A stretch of 64,000 nucleotides of DNA from an uncultured Actinomycetota bacterium (GTDB lineage Bacteria > Actinomycetota > Actinomycetes > Streptosporangiales > Streptosporangiaceae), in assembly GCA_963843745.1 (NCBI GenBank), contig CAWJLP010000005.1:214014-278013 (forward strand). The letters are read 5' to 3'. The notes under the pieces are model-generated. The model was not told the origin of the DNA and made no database searches. It worked only from the letters and a program-made list of their open reading frames with translations. Shown in pieces: positions 48,953-58,008 of this stretch (the first letter of the stretch is position 1; each line of letters begins with the position of its first letter). A program made the position numbers and the translations under genes.

Positions 48953-49837
48953 ATGCCAGAAGACATCACCCTGGAGCGCGGGCGGCCGGCTTCCGATACC
49001 GAGCTCGCCAGGCGGGCGGACTGGATCCGGCTGCAGACGATCGACCTGATCGCGCAGGCCGGGCTCGGCCACTATTCCTCCACCTTCTCCTGCGCGGAGA
49101 TCGTCGCGACGCTGTATTACCACGCGCTGCGGCTGCGGCCGGGCGAGCCGCGCTGGGCCGACCGGGACAGGTTCCTGCTCGGCAAGGGCCACGCGGCGAC
49201 CGGGCTCTGGCCCGTCCTCGCCGACCTCGGCTTCTACGACAAGACGCTGCTCAAGCAGTTCGGCAAGGTCGGCTCGCCGCTCAACGACCACCCGAACATG
49301 AAGCTCGCTCCCGGCATCGACTTCTCCTCCGGCTCCCTCGGGCACAACCTCAGCGTCGGCACCGGGATGGCGCTGGCCGGGCGGCTGTCCGGCCGGGACT
49401 ACCGGACGTTCGTGCTGACCGGCGACGGCGAGCTGCAGGAAGGGCAGGTCTGGGAGGCCGCGATGGCGGCGTCGCACTACAAGCTGGGCAACCTGGTCGC
49501 CATCGTGGACGCCAACGGGTTCTCGGGATCCGGCCCGACCTCGCTGGCGATGAACATCGAGCCGCTCGGCAAGCGGTTCGAGGCCTTCGGCTGGCGGGTC
49601 CAGGAGATCGACGGGCACGACATCGCCACGCTCAAGACGACGTTCGACGAGCTGCCTGACGCCGCGGCAAGCGAGCAGCCGACGGCGGTCATCGCCAGGA
49701 CGCGCAAGGGGCACGGCGTCGAGTTCATGGAGAAGCAGCCGCAGGCCTGGCACCTCGGCCTGCTCAACCCCGAGCAGTACGCCAACGTGGTCGCCGAGAT
49801 CACCGCCCGGATGGAACTCGAAGGGAGCGCGCGGTGA
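48953..49837 (+). CDS. Transketolase-family protein, N-terminal (TPP-binding) subunit
   Basis: The motifs are GHYSSTFSCAEIVATLYY, GKGHAA and the TPP motif LTGDGELQEGQVWEAAMAASHYKLGNLVAIVDAN. Confidence 0.9.
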   Translation: MPEDITLERGRPASDTELARRADWIRLQTIDLIAQAGLGHYSSTFSCAEIVATLYYHALRLRPGEPRWADRDRFLLGKGHAATGLWPVLADLGFYDKTLLKQFGKVGSPLNDHPNMKLAPGIDFSSGSLGHNLSVGTGMALAGRLSGRDYRTFVLTGDGELQEGQVWEAAMAASHYKLGNLVAIVDANGFSGSGPTSLAMNIEPLGKRFEAFGWRVQEIDGHDIATLKTTFDELPDAAASEQPTAVIARTRKGHGVEFMEKQPQAWHLGLLNPEQYANVVAEITARMELEGSAR

Positions 49838-50823
49838 GCCAGTCGCCCGAGCCGGCCGAGCGGAAGATGGTCGACGTCTTCTCCGACATCGACAGGGACA
49901 CCGCGCTCAAGGCCAACCCGTCCGGCTACGCGGTCACCGAGATCGCCGCCACCGACGACCGCGTGCTGACCATGACCGCGGACCTGTCCAATACGCTGGC
50001 CGAGTTCCGCGAGGCGTTCCCTGACAGGTACATCGAGCTCGGCATCGCGGAGACCAACTCGGTCTCGGTCGCCGCCGGCCTCGCGGCCTGCGGGTACGTG
50101 CCGTACATCTTCTCCATGTCGCCGTTCGGCATGCTGAAGACGGCCGAGCAGTGGCGCACCGACGCCGACTACAACCACCTGCCGGTCCGCCTCGTCGGGC
50201 GGCTGTCCGGCCTGGCCATGGGCTACTTCGGCACGAGCCACTACGCCGTCGAGGACATCGCGATCGCGCGGACATTCGCCAACACCACGGTGGTCTCCCC
50301 CGCCGACCAGAACGCGGTGCTCGCGCTGATGCGGTCCACGGCGGACTGCGAGGGCCCGGTCTACATCAGGATCGCCGAGGCGGTCGACCCGGTCTACGAC
50401 ACGGTGCCGGACATCACGCGCGGCATGTGGCCGCGGCTGCGGGAGGGCGGCGACCTCACGCTCGCCGCGCACGGCATGGGCGTCGGCCTCGCCGTGCAGG
50501 CCGCGGAGGTCCTGGCGTCCGAGCACGGCATCAGCGCCGACGTCTACGACGGCGGCTACCTCAAGCCGTTCGACGAGGCCGCGATCACCGGCACCGCCGC
50601 CAGGACGGGCAAGGTGCTCACGATCGAGGACCACACCGTGAACGGCGGCATCGGCGCCATCGTCGCGGAGACCGTCGCCCGGCACAAGATCGTCGCGGAC
50701 CTCGCGCAGTGCGCGCTGCCGGACGTGGACCTCGAGGTGGGCGTGCCCGCCGAGCTGTATGAGTACTACGGGCTGACGGTGGCGGGCGTGGTCGCCAGGG
50801 CCCTGGACCTCGTGAAGGGATAA
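49834..50823 (+). CDS. Transketolase-family protein, C-terminal (pyrimidine-binding) subunit
   Basis: It has ELGIAETNSVSVAAGLAACGYVPY and a C-terminal transketolase-like domain. A GTGA overlaps the upstream stop. Confidence 0.9.
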   Translation: MSQSPEPAERKMVDVFSDIDRDTALKANPSGYAVTEIAATDDRVLTMTADLSNTLAEFREAFPDRYIELGIAETNSVSVAAGLAACGYVPYIFSMSPFGMLKTAEQWRTDADYNHLPVRLVGRLSGLAMGYFGTSHYAVEDIAIARTFANTTVVSPADQNAVLALMRSTADCEGPVYIRIAEAVDPVYDTVPDITRGMWPRLREGGDLTLAAHGMGVGLAVQAAEVLASEHGISADVYDGGYLKPFDEAAITGTAARTGKVLTIEDHTVNGGIGAIVAETVARHKIVADLAQCALPDVDLEVGVPAELYEYYGLTVAGVVARALDLVKG

Positions 50824-50827
50824 CCGC

Positions 50828-51385
50828 ATGCCAGAACCGCTACTCGACCCCACCGGCGACAGCGACCGCAGCACCAACACGACGCTGGCGCCGCGGCCCC
50901 AGATGCTGAAGGGCCTGGTCGTCGGCCTGCTCGACAACACCAAGCCGAACGGCGCCGTCATCCTCCGGGCCGTCGGCCGCGAACTGCAGGAGAAGTACGG
51001 CGTCCGGGAGATCCGGATGTTCCAGAAGGGCTACTTCGGCACGCCCGTCGAGGAGTCCGTCGTCCAGCAGATGCTGCACAACTGCGATTTCGCGGTCGCC
51101 GCGATCGGTGATTGAGGCTCGTGCAGCGCGGCCAGTTTGGCCGATGGGATCGTGCTGGAGCGGGCCGGCATCCCCGCTGTCAGCCTGTGCACGGATGCCT
51201 TCAGGATCACCGCCGAGGCGATGGCGAACCAGATGGGGTTCCCCGGCTACCAGTACGTGGCCGTGCCGCACCCGGTCGCCAGCCGCACAGAAAAGGAGAT
51301 CGACGAGATGGCGCGCGACGCGCTGCCTGACGTCATCAAGGTGCTTGGCGCCGGGCTGACCTACCTGGCGGTGACACGAGCGTGA
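50828..51385 (+). CDS. UGSC-motif protein; candidate selenoprotein with in-frame TGA at 51113..51115 (otherwise a gene split into two)
   Basis: ORFs 50828..51115 and 51137..51385 are in the same frame, separated only by TGA. Read-through gives ...CDFAVAAIGD-U-GSCSAASLADGIVLERAGIPAVSLCTDAF..., 185 aa in total. The gene is tightly coupled to both flanking genes. Confidence 0.6.
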
Positions 51386-52467
51386 CAGACATCGACGCCG
51401 CTGAGGCACGCCGGGCGATCGACTATTACTACTCCCGCGGCTGGACCGACGGGCTGCCCGTCGTCCCGGTCACCGAGTCCTACCTCGCGGAGTTCCTGGC
51501 CACGACCGGCCGCGACCCTGACGAGGTGCTCATCCCCATGCCGCACCTCAACAAGAACCTCACCGTCCGGCTGGCCGCGATCAACGCGGCGCTCGCCGGC
51601 TGCCTGCCGGAGTACTTCCCCGTCGTGCTGGCCGCGTGGGACTCGTTCCTGCGCGACGGCATGGTCACCAGGTCGATCTGGCAGTCCACGACAGGGACCG
51701 CCCCGTTCGTCGTGGTCTACGGGCCGGCCAGGCAGCGGCTCGGGCTGAACTCCCGCGGCAACGTGTGGGGATCGGGGTTCCGCGCCAACGCGACGATCGG
51801 CCGGGCGATCAGGCTCGGCGCGATCAACGGCCTCGGCCTCAAGCCGCACGTGTTCGACCAGGCCACCCAGGGCACGCCCGCCAAGTACTCCTGCTGCATC
51901 GCGGAGAACGAGGAGGACTCCCCCTGGCCAAGCCTGGCCACGGACAACGACATCGGCCCTGACGACAGCGCCGTCTCCGCGACCGTTATCCGCTCGGTGC
52001 TGCACATCGAGGCCAGGCACACCACGGCTCCCGAGCAGCTCGCGGCGGACTTCGCCGACTCGCTGTGCCGCACCGGCGCGCTGGTGCGGGCCAGGGCCAG
52101 CGGCTACGTCGTGCTGAACCCGGAACACGCCCGGCTCTTCGACAAGCACGGCTGGTCCAAGGCCGACGTGCGCGCCGCCATCGCGGAGCAGGGCTGGCGC
52201 ACCTACCGGGACCTCGCGAGCGCGGGCAAGGAGGCCGTCGCGGGCGGCACCGGCTGGCGGCTGCCCGCCGACCACCCGGACGCCGTGCCGCAGGAAGCGC
52301 CTGACGATCCGGATACCCCGGTCCAGCTGATCACGTCCGTCGACGCGGTGCAGATCGTGGTGGCCGGCGCCCCCAACGCCGGCGTGTCCTCGATCGTCGA
52401 GACGTTCGGCCCGTCCGACCGCGGGCCGGCGATCACGAAGGTCGAGGAGAAACAGCTCCCGAGCTAG
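51382..52467 (+). CDS. Hypothetical protein, 361 aa; I recognise no family
   Basis: It has good GC3 usage, and its GTGA start overlaps the stop of the UGSC gene. Notable strings are GWTDGLPVVPVT, WQSTTGTAPFVVV and AKYSCCIAENEE. Confidence 0.7.
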   Translation: MTDIDAAEARRAIDYYYSRGWTDGLPVVPVTESYLAEFLATTGRDPDEVLIPMPHLNKNLTVRLAAINAALAGCLPEYFPVVLAAWDSFLRDGMVTRSIWQSTTGTAPFVVVYGPARQRLGLNSRGNVWGSGFRANATIGRAIRLGAINGLGLKPHVFDQATQGTPAKYSCCIAENEEDSPWPSLATDNDIGPDDSAVSATVIRSVLHIEARHTTAPEQLAADFADSLCRTGALVRARASGYVVLNPEHARLFDKHGWSKADVRAAIAEQGWRTYRDLASAGKEAVAGGTGWRLPADHPDAVPQEAPDDPDTPVQLITSVDAVQIVVAGAPNAGVSSIVETFGPSDRGPAITKVEEKQLPS

Positions 52468-53396
52468 GCATGCCCGGGCATCGGGTACTCGCCGGCGTTG
52501 AGCACCCATCCCGGTTGCCGGGAGAAGTCGGTGCGCGGCGGCGAGAAGATGTCGATGAGCTGGTTGACGCCGCTTCCCATCGCCTGTGACGTGTGAATAG
52601 CGGGAGGCGGGATGACAGTCAGTGAAGGGCTGCCGCACGCCTGATGATCGTCGGCGCGCCAGGTGCGCCGGTTGGTGGTCCACGGCCACCGGATGTGGTG
52701 GACGTACGAGCCTTGCAGGGCCAGGGATCCCTGCTCGAAATCGGCGTGGGAATGCGGGGAGAGCCTGGTCTCGTCGCGCGGCCCGTCCTGCGGATAGAGG
52801 ACGTTAAGCATCAGGGTCGAACAGCGAAAGATGCGCCCGAACCTGCCTTCCCGCGGGGCGATGTCCAGGCTGTAGACGCGCACCCGAGGGCCGTCCGCCG
52901 CCGTCGGCCAGGCGGCCAGCGGGGCGACGTTGAGATGGTCCTCGAGGTACGAATCGGCGTTAACCGCCTGGGCACACAGATCGGCGGCGTTCCGGCTGAA
53001 GACGCGGACGGCCTGCCCGCTCCCGGCAAGGGTGATCTCGCTATCGCCTGGCGGAATCACGGCGAGGGTGCGGCCGGGGATCTTCGTCGTCTGGCCGGCG
53101 GAAGTGACGCGCGCGCTGACGTCCTTGCCAGGCAGCAGCAGCATCCACTCGTCCGGCTGCGCCGTTCTGCCGAACGTGACCGACCCGTCGCAATCGGAAT
53201 AGCCCACGACGAAGTTCTGGGCCCGCGCGTACCAGTGCCGGCCGCTGTCGTCCTGCTGTGCGGGCGGGCATTGCCTGAAGACGATGTAGTCAGCGGGGTA
53301 GCTCACCGGACTCGGCACGGCGCTGGCCGCCGCGGCCGGGCCCAGCGCGGTGCGTGGATCAGTGCGGTCGTACATGCTCTCCTCCGGTGTCCGCAA
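52464..53396 (-). CDS. Cupin-like hypothetical protein
   Basis: 310-aa ORF with the HxH...E pattern SPHSHADFEQG in its C-terminal half. It is convergent with the preceding operon and overlaps it by 4 nt. Confidence 0.55.
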   Translation of the reverse strand: MRTPEESMYDRTDPRTALGPAAAASAVPSPVSYPADYIVFRQCPPAQQDDSGRHWYARAQNFVVGYSDCDGSVTFGRTAQPDEWMLLLPGKDVSARVTSAGQTTKIPGRTLAVIPPGDSEITLAGSGQAVRVFSRNAADLCAQAVNADSYLEDHLNVAPLAAWPTAADGPRVRVYSLDIAPREGRFGRIFRCSTLMLNVLYPQDGPRDETRLSPHSHADFEQGSLALQGSYVHHIRWPWTTNRRTWRADDHQACGSPSLTVIPPPAIHTSQAMGSGVNQLIDIFSPPRTDFSRQPGWVLNAGEYPMPGHA

Positions 53397-53440: not shown

Positions 53441-53923
53441 ATGGCTGACGAGCCCGCCGATGAGCCGCTTGTCGACGACGCGCGGCTCGTCACCTGGGCG
53501 GGCCCGGCGTTCATCCTGTTCTCCATCGTGCTGATCCCGTGGACCGTTTACCTGGGCCTCGACCTGCCGGACAGGCAGGAGTCCTCGCACTACAACATCG
53601 CCTGGGTCGGGTTCGACGTCATGCTCCTCATGGTGCTGGCCGCCACCGGGTTCTTCGCGCTGCGCCGGTCCCGCTTCCTGGCCGTGGGCGCCACCGCGGC
53701 CGCGACCCTGCTCGTGGTCGACGCCTGGTTCGACGTGATGACCTCGCCGCCGGGCAGCCAGTTCCTCCAGTCGCTCGCCTCCGCCATCCTCATCGAGCTG
53801 CCGCTGGCGGCCGTCTGCGGCTGGCTGGCCTACCACACCGAGCACCTCGAACAGGAGCGGGTCATCCTGCTGCTCAGGCGGGACTCCTGGCGGCGACGGC
53901 TGACCCCACGGGGCAGCCGATGA
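53441..53923 (+). CDS. Hypothetical membrane protein (four helices)
   Basis: 160-aa ORF with the hydrophobic segments PAFILFSIVLIPWTVYL, VGFDVMLLMVLAATGFFAL, AVGATAAATLLVV and ILIELPLAAVCGWLA. Confidence 0.6.
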   Translation: MADEPADEPLVDDARLVTWAGPAFILFSIVLIPWTVYLGLDLPDRQESSHYNIAWVGFDVMLLMVLAATGFFALRRSRFLAVGATAAATLLVVDAWFDVMTSPPGSQFLQSLASAILIELPLAAVCGWLAYHTEHLEQERVILLLRRDSWRRRLTPRGSR

Positions 53924-54320: not shown

Positions 54321-55721
54321 TTGCCCTGGCACGAGAAGCTGGCTCAAGCTCGGTACGTGAGCAGCGCAACGATTATCGAGCCGGGCAGGCAGACACCGGT
54401 GTACGGGGAGTTCGATGTCGTCGTGGTCGGCGGCGGACCGGCCGGCATCATGACGGCGACGGCGGCGGCGCGGACCGGGTGCTCGACGCTGCTGATCGAG
54501 CGGTACGGGTTCCTCGGCGGGGCCGGCACGGCCGGCGGGCTGTCCACGTTCTGCGGGCTGCACGCACGGACCCACGGCGAGGACGTGCGGATCATCAGGG
54601 GACTCGCCGACGAGCTGCTTGACCGGCTGGTCAAGCTGGACGGGCTGAACACGCCGCACCTGACGATCGCCGACGGGATCGCGGCGCAGGCATTCGACAT
54701 CTCCGCCTACAAGATCGCCGCGGACGAGCTCGTCACTGGCGCCGGCGCGCGGATCTTGTTTCACGCGATGGCGGTCGGCGTGGTCATGACCGGCGAGCAC
54801 GCGATCGACGCCGTACTGATCGAGTCCAAGTCCGGCAGGCACGCGGTCCGTGGCCGGTTCTTCATCGACGCGTCGGGCGACGGCGACCTCGCCGCCTGGG
54901 CCGGGGTGCCGTGGGAGAAGGCACCGCCGGTCAACGGGCTGATGTACCCGTCGCTCATGTTCCGCATCAACGGCGTGGACGTCGCCAAGGCGGGCCCGGC
55001 TCCGTGGCGCACCGTCGAGCGCCTGATGGACGAGGCGGAGCGGGCGGGCACCCACACGTTCCCGCGCAAGAAGCCGATCGTGCGCCCGCAGCGCAACCCC
55101 CTGGAATGGCGGGCCAACCTGACGCAGCTGCGCACCGAAGACGGCGGCGCCATCGACGGCACCAGCGTGGACGAGCTGACCCGCGGCGAGCTCATCGGCC
55201 GCCAGCAGGTGCTGGACGCGTTCACGTTCATCAGGGACCGCACGCCGGGCTTCGAGGACTCCTACATCGTAGACATCGCCCCGCAGATCGGCATCCGCGA
55301 GACCCGCAGGATCGTCGGCGCCTACCAGCTCACTGAGGACGATGTGCTCGGCTGCGCTGACTTCGGCGACACCATCGGGGTCAACGGCTGGCCGGTCGAG
55401 GCGCACGTGGCGGGCACCGTGGAGTTCCGCTGGCAGACGAAGCCGCGCGGGTTCAACCAGCTCCCGTTCCGGATGATCCTGCCAGGCACCGTCGACAACC
55501 TGTACGTCACCGGCCGGTGCGCGTCGATGACCCACGGCGCGCAGTCCGCCGCCCGGGTCACCGGACCCTGCTTCGCCATGGGCGAGGCGGCCGGCACGGC
55601 CGCCGGCATGGCCCTGGGCGCGGGGCTGGCCGGCGACAGGATCGACGTCACCGAGCTGCAGCGCCGCCTGGAAGACCAGGGCGCCTACCTCGGCCGCACC
55701 ACACCCGAGGTGATCCTCTGA
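54321..55721 (+). CDS. FAD-dependent oxidoreductase (FAD_oxidored-type)
   Basis: It has the dinucleotide fold FDVVVVGGGPAGIMTATAAARTG and a C-terminal GRCASMTHGAQSAARVTGPCFAMGEAAG. The start is TTG 54321 or GTG 54357. Confidence 0.8.
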   Translation: MPWHEKLAQARYVSSATIIEPGRQTPVYGEFDVVVVGGGPAGIMTATAAARTGCSTLLIERYGFLGGAGTAGGLSTFCGLHARTHGEDVRIIRGLADELLDRLVKLDGLNTPHLTIADGIAAQAFDISAYKIAADELVTGAGARILFHAMAVGVVMTGEHAIDAVLIESKSGRHAVRGRFFIDASGDGDLAAWAGVPWEKAPPVNGLMYPSLMFRINGVDVAKAGPAPWRTVERLMDEAERAGTHTFPRKKPIVRPQRNPLEWRANLTQLRTEDGGAIDGTSVDELTRGELIGRQQVLDAFTFIRDRTPGFEDSYIVDIAPQIGIRETRRIVGAYQLTEDDVLGCADFGDTIGVNGWPVEAHVAGTVEFRWQTKPRGFNQLPFRMILPGTVDNLYVTGRCASMTHGAQSAARVTGPCFAMGEAAGTAAGMALGAGLAGDRIDVTELQRRLEDQGAYLGRTTPEVIL

Positions 55722-55770
55722 GGCAAGTTGCAACGCTATGGTGCGAGTACGCCGACGAAAACCTCGTCTG

Positions 55771-55995
55771 CTATCCCAGATGAGTCATGAGGTCATCCGC
55801 GCTCCAGCCAGCCTGGCGCAGTATCGATCGGAGAGTGCCTACAGCGAGGCTCCGGTGGAGCGGGACGATGACCGTGCGATCGTTGCTGCGGTACTTAGCA
55901 TGGCTGCCTCGCGTCGAGACGTGCGCAAATCCCGCGCGCTCCAGAGCCTTGGCGACCTCCGCGCCCGACAGGCCCGAAGGCAGCGCCGGGCTCAC
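55771..55995 (-). CDS. hicA: HicA-family type II toxin (mRNA interferase)
   Basis: LSGAEVAKALERAGFAHVSTRGSHAKYRSNDRTVIVPLHRSLAVGTLRSILRQAG is the canonical HicA length and motif. Confidence 0.85.
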   Translation of the reverse strand: MSPALPSGLSGAEVAKALERAGFAHVSTRGSHAKYRSNDRTVIVPLHRSLAVGTLRSILRQAGWSADDLMTHLG

Positions 55996-56204
55996 GCGAC
56001 TAGGACCTCGATAGGGGCCGTGATGACGTCGGTGACCTCGGGAGCGGGGGCATCCTCGAAATACAGCTCAAGGGCCTCGCGAAGGTTATCGAGGGCTTCC
56101 TCGATTGTTTCACCTTGGCTAGTGACCTCAACCTGGAGACACCTGGCCACATACCACTCGCCCTCGTGCGTGACGGCGGCGGTCAGATGCAGTGCGTGCG
56201 TCAT
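55992..56204 (-). CDS. hicB: HicB-family antitoxin (short, no obvious DNA-binding extension)
   Basis: Lies within ORF 55992..56246; the likely start is ATG 56204. The core is MTHALHLTAAVTHEGEWYVARCLQVEVTSQGETIEEALDNLREALELYFE. It overlaps hicA by 4 nt. Confidence 0.8.
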   Translation of the reverse strand: MTHALHLTAAVTHEGEWYVARCLQVEVTSQGETIEEALDNLREALELYFEDAPAPEVTDVITAPIEVLVA

Positions 56205-56316
56205 AGCTCCAGTTTGGCATGCCGACGCTGATCCGTGGCGGGCCACAACGGGGCGGCGGGTTTTGGCGGGTCACACCCTCTTGCCCGTACGCCACCGGCG
56301 TATCAGGCTCTGGGGT

Positions 56317-58008
56317 GTGGCAGATCGCAAGCTCCGGTCTAACTTCACCCCGGGAACGACGCCGTGGGCGATGCGCCGCGCGCAGTGGTCCGCGCTCGGG
56401 CTGACCGACGAGGACCTGGAGAAGCCCAAGATCGCGATCGTCAACTCCTCGTCGCAGCTGGCGTCCTGCTTCAGTCACCTGGACGAGATCGTCGCCCCGC
56501 TCAAGGCGGCCATCGAAGCGGCCGGTGGCGTCGCATTCGAGGTGCGTACCGCCGCCCCGTCCGACGCGATCACCAGCGCCGGCGCGGCCGGGCAGTACAT
56601 CCTGCCGAGCCGCGACCTCATCGCCAGCGACATCGAGGTCGCCGTCGAGGGCGCGCTGCTCGACGGCATGGTCTGCCTGGCGTCGTGCGACAAGACCACG
56701 CCCGGCCAGCTCATGGCCGCGGGCCGGCTCAACATCCCGACGATCATCGTGGCCTGCGGCTACCAGCCGTCCGGCGTCTACAAGGGCGAGTCCGTCGACT
56801 TCGAGGACATCTTCAGGTTCGCCGGGCACGTGAACGCCGGCCGGATGACCGTCGACGAGCTCGCGGAGATGTCACGCTGCGCGGTCACGGGGCCCGGCGT
56901 CTGCGCCGGGATGGGCACGGCGAACTCCATGCACCTGGCCGCCGAGGCGCTCGGCATGGCGCTGCCAGGCACCACCCCGGTGCTCGCTCGCGGGCGGCGG
57001 ATGTGGGACGCGGTGGCGCAGGCCGGCGCTCGCATCGTGGCGCTGGTCGACGAAGACATCCGCCCTCGGTCGGTCCTGACGAGCGCGGCCTTCGCCAACG
57101 CCGTCACCGCGATCCTGGCGGTCAGCGGGTCCGTGAACTGCCTCAAGCACCTGCAGGCCATCGCCGTCGAGGCCGGCTGCGACGCGGACGTGTACCGGCT
57201 GTTCGAGGACCTCGCGCCGAAGGTGCCGCTGCTCACCGACGTCAAGCCCAACGGCGACACCCAGATCACCCAGTTCGACGCGGCGGGCGGCACCCGCGCG
57301 CTGCTGCGGCAGCTCGCCCCGCTGCTCGACCTGTCGGCCAGGACCGTCGCCGGGGTCACGCTCGGCGAGGCGATCGCCGCGGCGCCGGCCGACGGCGCGG
57401 TGATCAGGCCGCTGACGGCGCCGCTCGCCACGCACCCCGCCATCGTGGTGATGCGCGGCTCGCTGGCGCCCGACGGGGCCGTGCTGAAGCGGACGGTCGC
57501 CGACGACGCGCCGCTCACGTTCCGCGGGCCCGCCAAGGTCGTGCACTCCCGGGAGGAAGGCGTCGCGGCGGCGCGGGCCGGCCGCTTCACGGCCGGCGAC
57601 GTCGTGGTGCTCACCGGGCTCGGGCTGCGCGGCTCCCCCGGCATGGGGCTGACGTCGGCGCTGATGTTCGCCATCGACGGGGCCGGGCTGTCGACATCGG
57701 TCGCGGTGATCACCGACGGGCAGATGTCCGGGCTCGTCAACGGCGGCCTGGTGGTCGCCGAGGTGGCGCCTGAGGGCGCGGCGGGCGGCCCGCTCGGCCT
57801 GGTCCGCGACGGCGACATGATCTCCATCGACGTGAACGCCAGGACGATCGACCTCGAGGCCGATCCCGGCGAGCTGGACCGGCGGCGGGCGGCTCTGCCG
57901 CCGCTGGCGGCGCCGGCCGGGTGCGGCTGGCTGTCGGTCTACGCGCGGACCGTCGCGCCGCTCGGCCGCGGCGCGACCCTCAGTGGTATTGCCTCAACGA
58001 AGAGCTAA
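56317..58008 (+). CDS. IlvD/Edd-family dehydratase (dihydroxy-acid or sugar-acid dehydratase)
   Basis: Lies within ORF 55738..58008; the likely GTG start is at 56317. The upstream part of that ORF is antisense to hicBA. The motifs are KPKIAIVNSSS, LASCDKTTPG and ITDGQMSG. Confidence 0.88.
   Translation: MADRKLRSNFTPGTTPWAMRRAQWSALGLTDEDLEKPKIAIVNSSSQLASCFSHLDEIVAPLKAAIEAAGGVAFEVRTAAPSDAITSAGAAGQYILPSRDLIASDIEVAVEGALLDGMVCLASCDKTTPGQLMAAGRLNIPTIIVACGYQPSGVYKGESVDFEDIFRFAGHVNAGRMTVDELAEMSRCAVTGPGVCAGMGTANSMHLAAEALGMALPGTTPVLARGRRMWDAVAQAGARIVALVDEDIRPRSVLTSAAFANAVTAILAVSGSVNCLKHLQAIAVEAGCDADVYRLFEDLAPKVPLLTDVKPNGDTQITQFDAAGGTRALLRQLAPLLDLSARTVAGVTLGEAIAAAPADGAVIRPLTAPLATHPAIVVMRGSLAPDGAVLKRTVADDAPLTFRGPAKVVHSREEGVAAARAGRFTAGDVVVLTGLGLRGSPGMGLTSALMFAIDGAGLSTSVAVITDGQMSGLVNGGLVVAEVAPEGAAGGPLGLVRDGDMISIDVNARTIDLEADPGELDRRRAALPPLAAPAGCGWLSVYARTVAPLGRGATLSGIASTKS

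Follow-up and report, generated by a model that had tools for sequence, protein, structure and literature searches.

Does the in-frame TGA at this locus end a protein, or is it read as selenocysteine (Sec)? The initial annotation proposed Sec after finding a U-G-S-C motif in the read-through frame. We followed this proposal through the 64-kb stretch of DNA in which the gene lies (the window) and through related loci from other genomes, which carry L numbers below.

A single reading frame spans an in-frame TGA

The gene structure first described for the locus was confirmed from the sequence. The ORFs 50828..51115 and 51137..51385 share a common frame; a lone TGA at 51113-51115 closes the first, and seven sense codons lead from it to the start of the second. 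Reading through this codon gives a product of 185 aa, ...AVAAIGD-U-GSCSAASLADGIVLERAGIPAVSLCTDAF..., in which the peptide across the UGA is ...AAIGD-U-GSCSAASLADGIVLER and the motif D-U-G-S-C-S-A occupies residues 95-101. Translational coupling, also part of the original description, is present on both sides: the ATG lies 4 nt past the stop of the C-terminal transketolase gene (TAA 50821-50823), and at the other end GTGA (51382-51385) contains both the gene's own stop and the GTG with which the next gene begins. The two halves have GC3 values of 0.92 and 0.88, a coding-type composition in a window with a G+C content of 71.6%. When the whole window was scanned for a second TGA with strong coding signal on both sides, none was found apart from an ordinary junction between an sbcD stop and an sbcC start.

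Existing gene calls cut this frame in two. The source annotations give a 95-aa 'hypothetical protein' ending at the TGA, and this N-terminal product falls in a 90%-identity cluster of 125 members, with ...AAIGD as the end of all 15 members listed. Other gene callers start the second half at an in-frame GTG at 51152, 13 codons past the TGA, and obtain a 77-aa product; the statement in the initial annotation that the second half has no ATG or GTG is therefore wrong. The features of the locus are collected in Table 1.

Table 1 Coordinates of the UGSC gene, its hairpin and neighbouring genes (window positions unless a locus is named)
Feature	Position	Strand	Basis or remark
Split transketolase, N-terminal subunit	48953-49837	+	Pfam Transketolase_N, Transket_pyr, Transketolase_C (both subunits)
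Split transketolase, C-terminal subunit	49834-50823	+	as above
UGSC family selenoprotein gene (predicted)	50828..51385	+	185 codons plus stop, TGA read through; NF041046 and PF24696 matches
Predicted UGA-Sec codon, residue 96, first residue of U-G-S-C	51113..51115	+	Cys at aligned position in homologues
SECIS-type hairpin CGGCCA-GUU-UGGCCG	51127..51146	+	covariation; starts 11 nt after UGA
Hairpin core stem	51129-51133 with 51139-51143	+	5 bp
Hairpin A-U closing pair	51134/51138	+	RNAalifold
Hairpin apical loop G-U-U	51135-51137	+	
Hairpin lower part, two pairs with bulged A	within 51127..51146	+	RNAalifold
Partner gene, 361 aa, no known family or fold	51382..52467	+	overlaps UGSC stop
PF12831 FAD-dependent oxidoreductase	54321-55721; L014 11212-12576; L081 2619-4118		

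The read-through product belongs to the UGSC family

For profile searches, Cys was substituted for Sec in the read-through product. It matched the NCBIfam model NF041046, 'UGSC family (seleno)protein', from end to end with 157.1 bits against a cut-off of 125, and Pfam PF24696 with 210.3 bits against a cut-off of 25, covering profile positions 2-171 of 172 and running across the TGA. Both scores exceed the curated cut-offs, and the family named in the initial annotation is thus the correct one. In the protein database, C-G-S-C was aligned with U-G-S-C in 120 of the 120 best full-length homologues listed, and these Cys-form homologues came from Agromyces, Microbacterium, Nonomuraea, Actinomadura and others.

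The 'UGSC-containing protein' is a published selenoprotein family with a UxxC motif (Zhang & Gladyshev 2008, PMC2398784). The same study found UGSC among the most abundant selenoprotein families in the GOS metagenomes, reported its fusion to an unknown domain and suggested a thioredoxin-like fold (PMC2398784), and the family also appears in later surveys and reviews (PMC5029168, PMC9312934, PMC13188914). The UGSC family and its Sec recoding have accordingly been known in the literature since 2008 (PMC2398784), and the window gene is an ordinary member of this curated, published Sec-recoded family. It resembles the published members in its U-G-S-C motif, its size, the existence of Sec/Cys pairs, the SECIS after the UGA and the association or fusion with an unknown second domain, and it shows no essential difference from them. 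The window copy does, however, come from the soil acidophilic actinomycete Trebonia, whereas the published ones come from aquatic metagenomes, and it is placed behind a split transketolase, which is a feature of the Trebonia lineage. A literature search for Trebonia together with selenium or selenoproteins gave nothing.

The TGA is retained across independent genomes

By exact sequence matches, the window falls on a 347-kb contig of a metagenome-assembled genome, and the clusters that include its proteins are named Trebonia sp. We compared the codon in two sets of loci. The Trebonia-like set (L001-L015) takes in the genome of the T. kvetii isolate and a Logan assembly of that organism, together with 11 contigs from metagenomes, one other large assembly and a MAG that bears the label Nocardiopsaceae. 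All 15 loci carry the TGA followed by an intact conserved second half, and the NCBI record of T. kvetii gives a single 190-aa product in which the TGA is counted as a residue. In one of these loci (L001, ENA contig_57760) the transketolase, ABC transporter and ILVD genes are fragmented relative to the window and L002, likely by assembly frameshifts, and the UGSC gene is intact with its TGA.

The second set came from a scan of one genome per species with the pattern G-D-TGA-G-S-C-S-A-x4-D-G, which returned at least 120 loci, all of them genuine UGSC genes with TGA. About 80 conserved codons follow the TGA wherever the DNA extends that far (L018, L050, L074, L108 and L110 end earlier). Hosts of the Sec form include Dehalococcoidia, Solirubrobacterales, Streptosporangiaceae, Micromonosporaceae, Acidobacteriota, Burkholderiales, Dormibacterota and Trebonia; Sec forms from Micromonosporaceae other than MAGs were found in Plantactinospora solaniradicis strain CGMCC 4.7284 (L079) and Micromonosporaceae bacterium B7E4 (L070). 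Among the matches listed, the window protein has Sec forms as its six closest relatives at species level (75-83% identity), and the Cys forms are more distant, the best being 62% identical. Several actinobacterial families commonly carry UGSC in its Sec form. The view expressed at the outset, that selenoproteins other than formate dehydrogenase are rare in aerobic actinomycetes, fails for UGSC, as the species genomes hold at least about 34 distinct Sec-form sequences of the actinobacterial type (SAASL subgroup).

These data bear directly on the possibility that the TGA arose by nonsense mutation or as part of pseudogene decay, or is a base-call error for TGC/TGT, in which case the gene would be dead or mis-sequenced. 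Such a lesion would agree with the 95-aa product of the source annotations and with the Cys in all of the 120 best full-length homologues. However, independent assemblies from many samples, one isolate genome and no fewer than 120 species share the TGA, each with a conserved and uninterrupted second half, and the nearest relatives are all TGA forms. Faulty sequencing, a nonsense mutation confined to this strain and a pseudogene are thereby excluded, and the TGA-specific covarying hairpin described below speaks against them as well. Judged on comparative sequence data, we consider a lesion or error to be already refuted and give it a negligible probability.

A TGA-specific hairpin with a covarying stem follows the codon

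In E. coli fdhF, the minimal SECIS is an upper stem-loop situated 11 nt from the UGA, within the coding sequence, with a G-U in its apical loop and a bulged U on its 5' side. The initial annotation counted a missing SECIS among the signs of a nonsense mutation or pseudogene; here, a TGA-specific hairpin with covariation follows the UGA. The hairpin motif occurs once in the 64-kb window, and the 20-mer 51127-51146 folds at -9.9 kcal/mol (z -3.2). The minimum free energy fold of the 81 nt after the TGA is a wider stem-loop that is no stabler than shuffles (z -0.08), so that covariation was needed to define the hairpin.

For this we used alignment A1, which contains 68 distinct Sec-form sequences and in which columns 20-24 pair with 30-34, equivalent to 51129-51133 with 51139-51143. 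Standard pairs were present in 100% of the 340 cells of the 5-bp core, with compensatory double changes at three of the five pairs (62 cells) and pair types that vary as G-C/C-G/A-U, G-C/U-A/G-U and C-G/G-C. Not one of 500 shuffles equalled the observed covariation score, and when the 3' partner was slid by 1-3 columns as a control, pairing fell to 18-59%. In the RNAalifold consensus, an additional A-U pair closes the loop (G-U-N), and below the core come two further pairs and a bulged A. L014 does not conserve these lower pairs, and support is limited to the short apical hairpin.

Some of the pairing potential comes from the conserved amino acids A-A-x-x-A-D. In L030 and L067 (GCA...GCT), the compensatory changes are synonymous on both sides, and other compensatory changes alter the protein in a coordinated manner, giving A..A, C..H or G..L at positions +6 and +9. 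The +6 and +9 residues thus covary with the SECIS stem (51131-51142), which indicates that the RNA structure constrains the protein right after the active site.

As a further control, 114 distinct Cys-form genes from metagenomes were compared with 105 Sec forms, the latter without the SASAV subgroup. All five pairs could form in 100% of the Sec forms and in only 10% of the Cys forms. At the two pairs that involve wobble positions (21-33 and 24-30), pairing was 100% and 100% in the Sec forms compared to 52% and 47% in the Cys forms. The loop codon is AGT in 104 of the 105 Sec forms and in none of the 114 Cys forms. The Asp codon before the TGA or TGY (window 51110-51112) also differs, being GAT in 82% of the Sec forms and GAC in 96% of the Cys forms, and the U directly 5' of the UGA appears from this codon usage to be under selection. 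The SASAV subgroup, which is small and belongs to Solirubrobacterales, has a shifted hairpin, CGUCGGC-GGUC-GCCGACG. Within the Trebonia lineage, 11 distinct sequences show zero substitutions from -24 to +65 around the TGA, compared to 3-8 per 30 nt downstream, and the invariant stretch uses the codons GAT, AGT and TTG, which are rare at 93% GC3.

By its position, size and G-U loop, the hairpin at 51127-51146 fits what would be expected of a bacterial SECIS. Like the fdhF element, it is a short hairpin 3' of the UGA in the coding sequence, with an offset of 11 nt and an apical G-U. Its sequence differs from that of fdhF, its bulge is a 3'-side A in place of the 5'-side U, and its loop is 3 nt long, or 5 nt with the A-U closing pair open. 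It is a putative SelB ligand.

Decoding of the UGA

A SECIS would require the machinery that reads it. In the 64-kb window, ARAGORN detected no tRNA of any kind, tRNA-Sec included, an Rfam search matched no family, and Pfam scans of the approximately 36 window ORFs gave no SelA, SelB or SelD. The same genes and tRNA-Sec were absent from the fetched flanks of all loci when these were searched by tblastn with E. coli SelA, SelB and SelD and by ARAGORN. SelB-like tblastn matches in the fetched loci were rejected, being CysN beside CysD. In Solirubrobacterales, the UGSC gene and its partner lie a few kb from cysN/cysD (sulfate adenylyltransferase) in three loci (L051 212-1507, L081 4183-6397 and L129). 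Because of the strong selection on the SECIS in the Trebonia lineage, we infer that Sec-insertion machinery is present.

We considered two other ways in which the UGA might be decoded. Translation could mostly stop there, with the halves made separately, the second from GTG 51152 or TTG 51137, to give a selenium-free split protein. The in-frame GTG used by gene callers would permit this, and the window in which no Sec machinery was seen is consistent with it. A restart at 51152, however, would lose the G-S-C motif and the first helix turns, which are invariant in the family, and there is no convincing ribosome-binding site before this GTG. Moreover, the Cys-form relatives are one chain, and a split protein would explain neither the TGA-specific hairpin nor the preference for the codons AGT and GAT. 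We think a split protein highly improbable.

Alternatively, the hairpin could assist a recoding of the UGA in which the residue is not Sec, for example Cys inserted by a UGA-reading tRNA, or Cys inserted when selenium is scarce. The inserted amino acid cannot be read from DNA, and Sec-synthesis genes were not observed within the 64-kb window. Some bacteria are known to have SelB-dependent tRNAs of Cys identity that decode UGA. Nevertheless, both the curated models and the literature treat UGSC as a Sec/Cys family, lineages with Cys at this position simply encode it with TGC, and a SECIS kept for the insertion of Cys would be costly with no obvious benefit. We consider insertion of a residue other than Sec to be improbable too, with a small share of the likelihood.

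We conclude that the in-frame TGA very probably encodes selenocysteine. The recoding put forward in the initial annotation is supported by the family score, by the position of the codon in alignment with Cys, by the retention of the TGA and the frame across lineages, and by the TGA-specific covarying hairpin. A single explanation would cover these observations: 50828..51385 is one UGSC selenoprotein gene, with Sec at codon 96 and a SECIS at 51127-51146, and its product would act as a redox subunit with a partner protein. We estimate the probability of this explanation as a whole at close to nine in ten.

Fold and relationship to selenoprotein B

For the structure, we modelled a natural Cys homologue that is 62% identical to the window protein. 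The model (mean pLDDT 90.5) is a flavodoxin-like alpha/beta domain built of a beta-alpha repeat, and the U/C-G-S-C motif lies at the end of a beta-strand and the N-terminus of a helix. Taken from the model, this strand-end and helix-start location would be the usual position for a redox-active pair. The PDB matches of the model are flavodoxin-like or Rossmann-like, with TM scores of 0.3-0.5, in contrast to the thioredoxin-like fold suggested in 2008 (PMC2398784). A thioredoxin-fold oxidoreductase was rejected, as no thioredoxin was among the PDB matches listed for this model. PDB sequence, profile and fold searches for the UGSC and partner proteins gave no informative match.

The initial annotation also noted a resemblance to the active-site region of selenoprotein B (GrdB/PrdB), and part of this observation holds. 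Weak matches to TIGR01917 (GrdB) are real and recurrent, coming from 36 of 59 UGSC family members, and other members match GrdF, the general selenoprotein-B subfamily model or PrdB. In the window protein, residues 79-157 align with TIGR01917 positions 329-402 of 431, spanning the region of the Sec motif. These matches do not amount to membership, since the scores of the window protein are far under the cut-offs (TIGR01917, 19.3 vs 602 bits; TIGR01918, 16.1 vs 65.5 bits), none of the 59 UGSC members matches Pfam GRDB at E up to 1, and there is no grd or prd operon: grdA, grdC, grdD, grdE and prdA were all absent near the window UGSC gene. We therefore rejected membership in selenoprotein B. The weak but consistent pattern of profile matches suggests that UGSC is a remote relative of GrdB/PrdB rather than a member.

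UGSC and selenoprotein B (GrdB, GrdF, GrdH, PrdB; TIGR01917, TIGR01918, TIGR04483) both have a UxxC motif with Sec first. We also count partnership with a second protein as a common feature, which for UGSC is read from the gene neighbourhood. The two differ in size, UGSC being a single domain of 185 aa and selenoprotein B approximately 430 aa.

UGSC and a conserved partner gene form a two-gene module

The gene that overlaps the UGSC stop is a near-constant companion of the family. In 71 of the 73 Cys-form loci it directly follows UGSC; among the Sec-form loci, 41 have the partner downstream and 43 have it directly upstream in the same orientation. In two Trebonia-like loci where the transketolase genes are absent (L010 and L011), the partner is kept with UGSC. 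In L035 (5022-6704), L056 and L093, the partner is fused in frame behind a Sec-containing UGSC domain, and L042 holds a UGSC-partner fusion too, cut by the end of the locus. The fusions come from a Micromonosporaceae MAG, a Dormibacterota MAG (two contigs) and a Terriglobales MAG, and their partner part is 45-60% identical to the window partner.

The partner has more than 5,000 homologues, with invariant Cys74 and Cys171, and searches of Pfam, NCBIfam and the PDB gave no match for it. Modelled with pLDDT 81 and pTM 0.84, it had no significant structural neighbour; a 'Toblerone fold' was rejected, the match not being significant (E 0.03, TM 0.2). We infer that the partner is probably the 'Unknown_1' fusion domain of the 2008 GOS paper (PMC2398784).

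The best-supported reading of these data is that UGSC would be a Sec/Cys redox or nucleophilic subunit acting with the partner protein. For the redox role as for the tie to the partner, the evidence is the motif position in the model, the gene neighbourhood and the weak similarity to GrdB/PrdB.

Wider neighbourhood

The neighbours of the window UGSC gene are the transketolase subunits, the 361-aa protein, ABC sugar-transport genes and dehydrogenases. The split transketolase lies upstream of UGSC in the same operon. Of the loci compared, 5 of 90 Sec-form and 0 of 39 Cys-form ones have a transketolase upstream of UGSC; at this frequency, we rejected a link to transketolase as a general feature of UGSC and regard it as specific to the Trebonia lineage. 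L010 and L011 represent a Trebonia-like variant without the transketolase genes. On some Trebonia-like contigs, a remnant of the transketolase N-terminus stands in frame with the N-terminal half of UGSC, giving 180-aa products (P0131, P0133), and this in-frame fusion indicates a deletion.

After the module come two conserved ORFs without family assignment. One, of 310 aa (52464-53396, minus strand), is also present in L001-L003, and the other, of 160 aa (53441-53923, plus strand), is probably a membrane protein. A PF12831 FAD-dependent oxidoreductase lies near the UGSC-partner pair in 14 of 104 Sec-form loci and 1 of 40 Cys-form loci, and could possibly be the electron donor for the pair. Further downstream, the ORF at 55738-58008 encodes an ILVD/EDD-family dehydratase of 756 aa in which the domain begins at residue 229. 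Orthologues are called with 545-560 aa, so that the true start is probably well downstream of 55738.

Proposed mechanism and significance

We propose the following sequence of events for the window gene. With UGA at codon 96, the mRNA would fold into a short G+C-rich hairpin with a G-U loop eleven nt downstream. SelB-GTP carrying Sec-tRNA(Sec) would bind this hairpin while the ribosome stands at the UGA, so that selenocysteine is inserted and the 185-aa protein is made rather than the 95-aa fragment. In the folded protein, Sec96 and Cys99 would cycle between the selenol/thiol and selenenylsulfide states, and the protein may supply the redox or nucleophilic subunit of an enzyme whose other part is encoded at 51382-52467. 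The chemistry may be related to that of GrdB/PrdB, whose Sec region UGSC weakly resembles.

A broader and more tentative possibility is that UGSC and its ~360-aa partner form a widespread two-subunit selenoenzyme, sometimes fused, in Actinomycetota, Chloroflexota, Acidobacteriota, Dormibacterota and Burkholderiales. Its free-standing Sec domain might be distantly related to the catalytic domain of GrdB/PrdB, and the enzyme might carry out reductive bond cleavage in aerobic soil bacteria, in Trebonia maybe tied to the nearby transketolase and sugar-acid genes. We regard this larger scheme as speculative.

Nothing in the UGSC case changes what is known of recoding itself. Its added value lies in a corrected annotation, a clean, covariation-supported SECIS for the UGSC family and a documented UGSC-partner module. 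The 95-aa 'hypothetical protein' and the second fragment of the deposited records should be replaced by one selenoprotein CDS with a transl_except at 51113-51115. The pairing of UGSC with the 360-aa protein, together with their fusions, defines a two-gene module that is open to characterisation in the culturable T. kvetii. For the organism, the finding means that Trebonia, a lineage of aerobic, acidophilic soil actinomycetes, has very probably retained, under selection, a selenoprotein that is not formate dehydrogenase.
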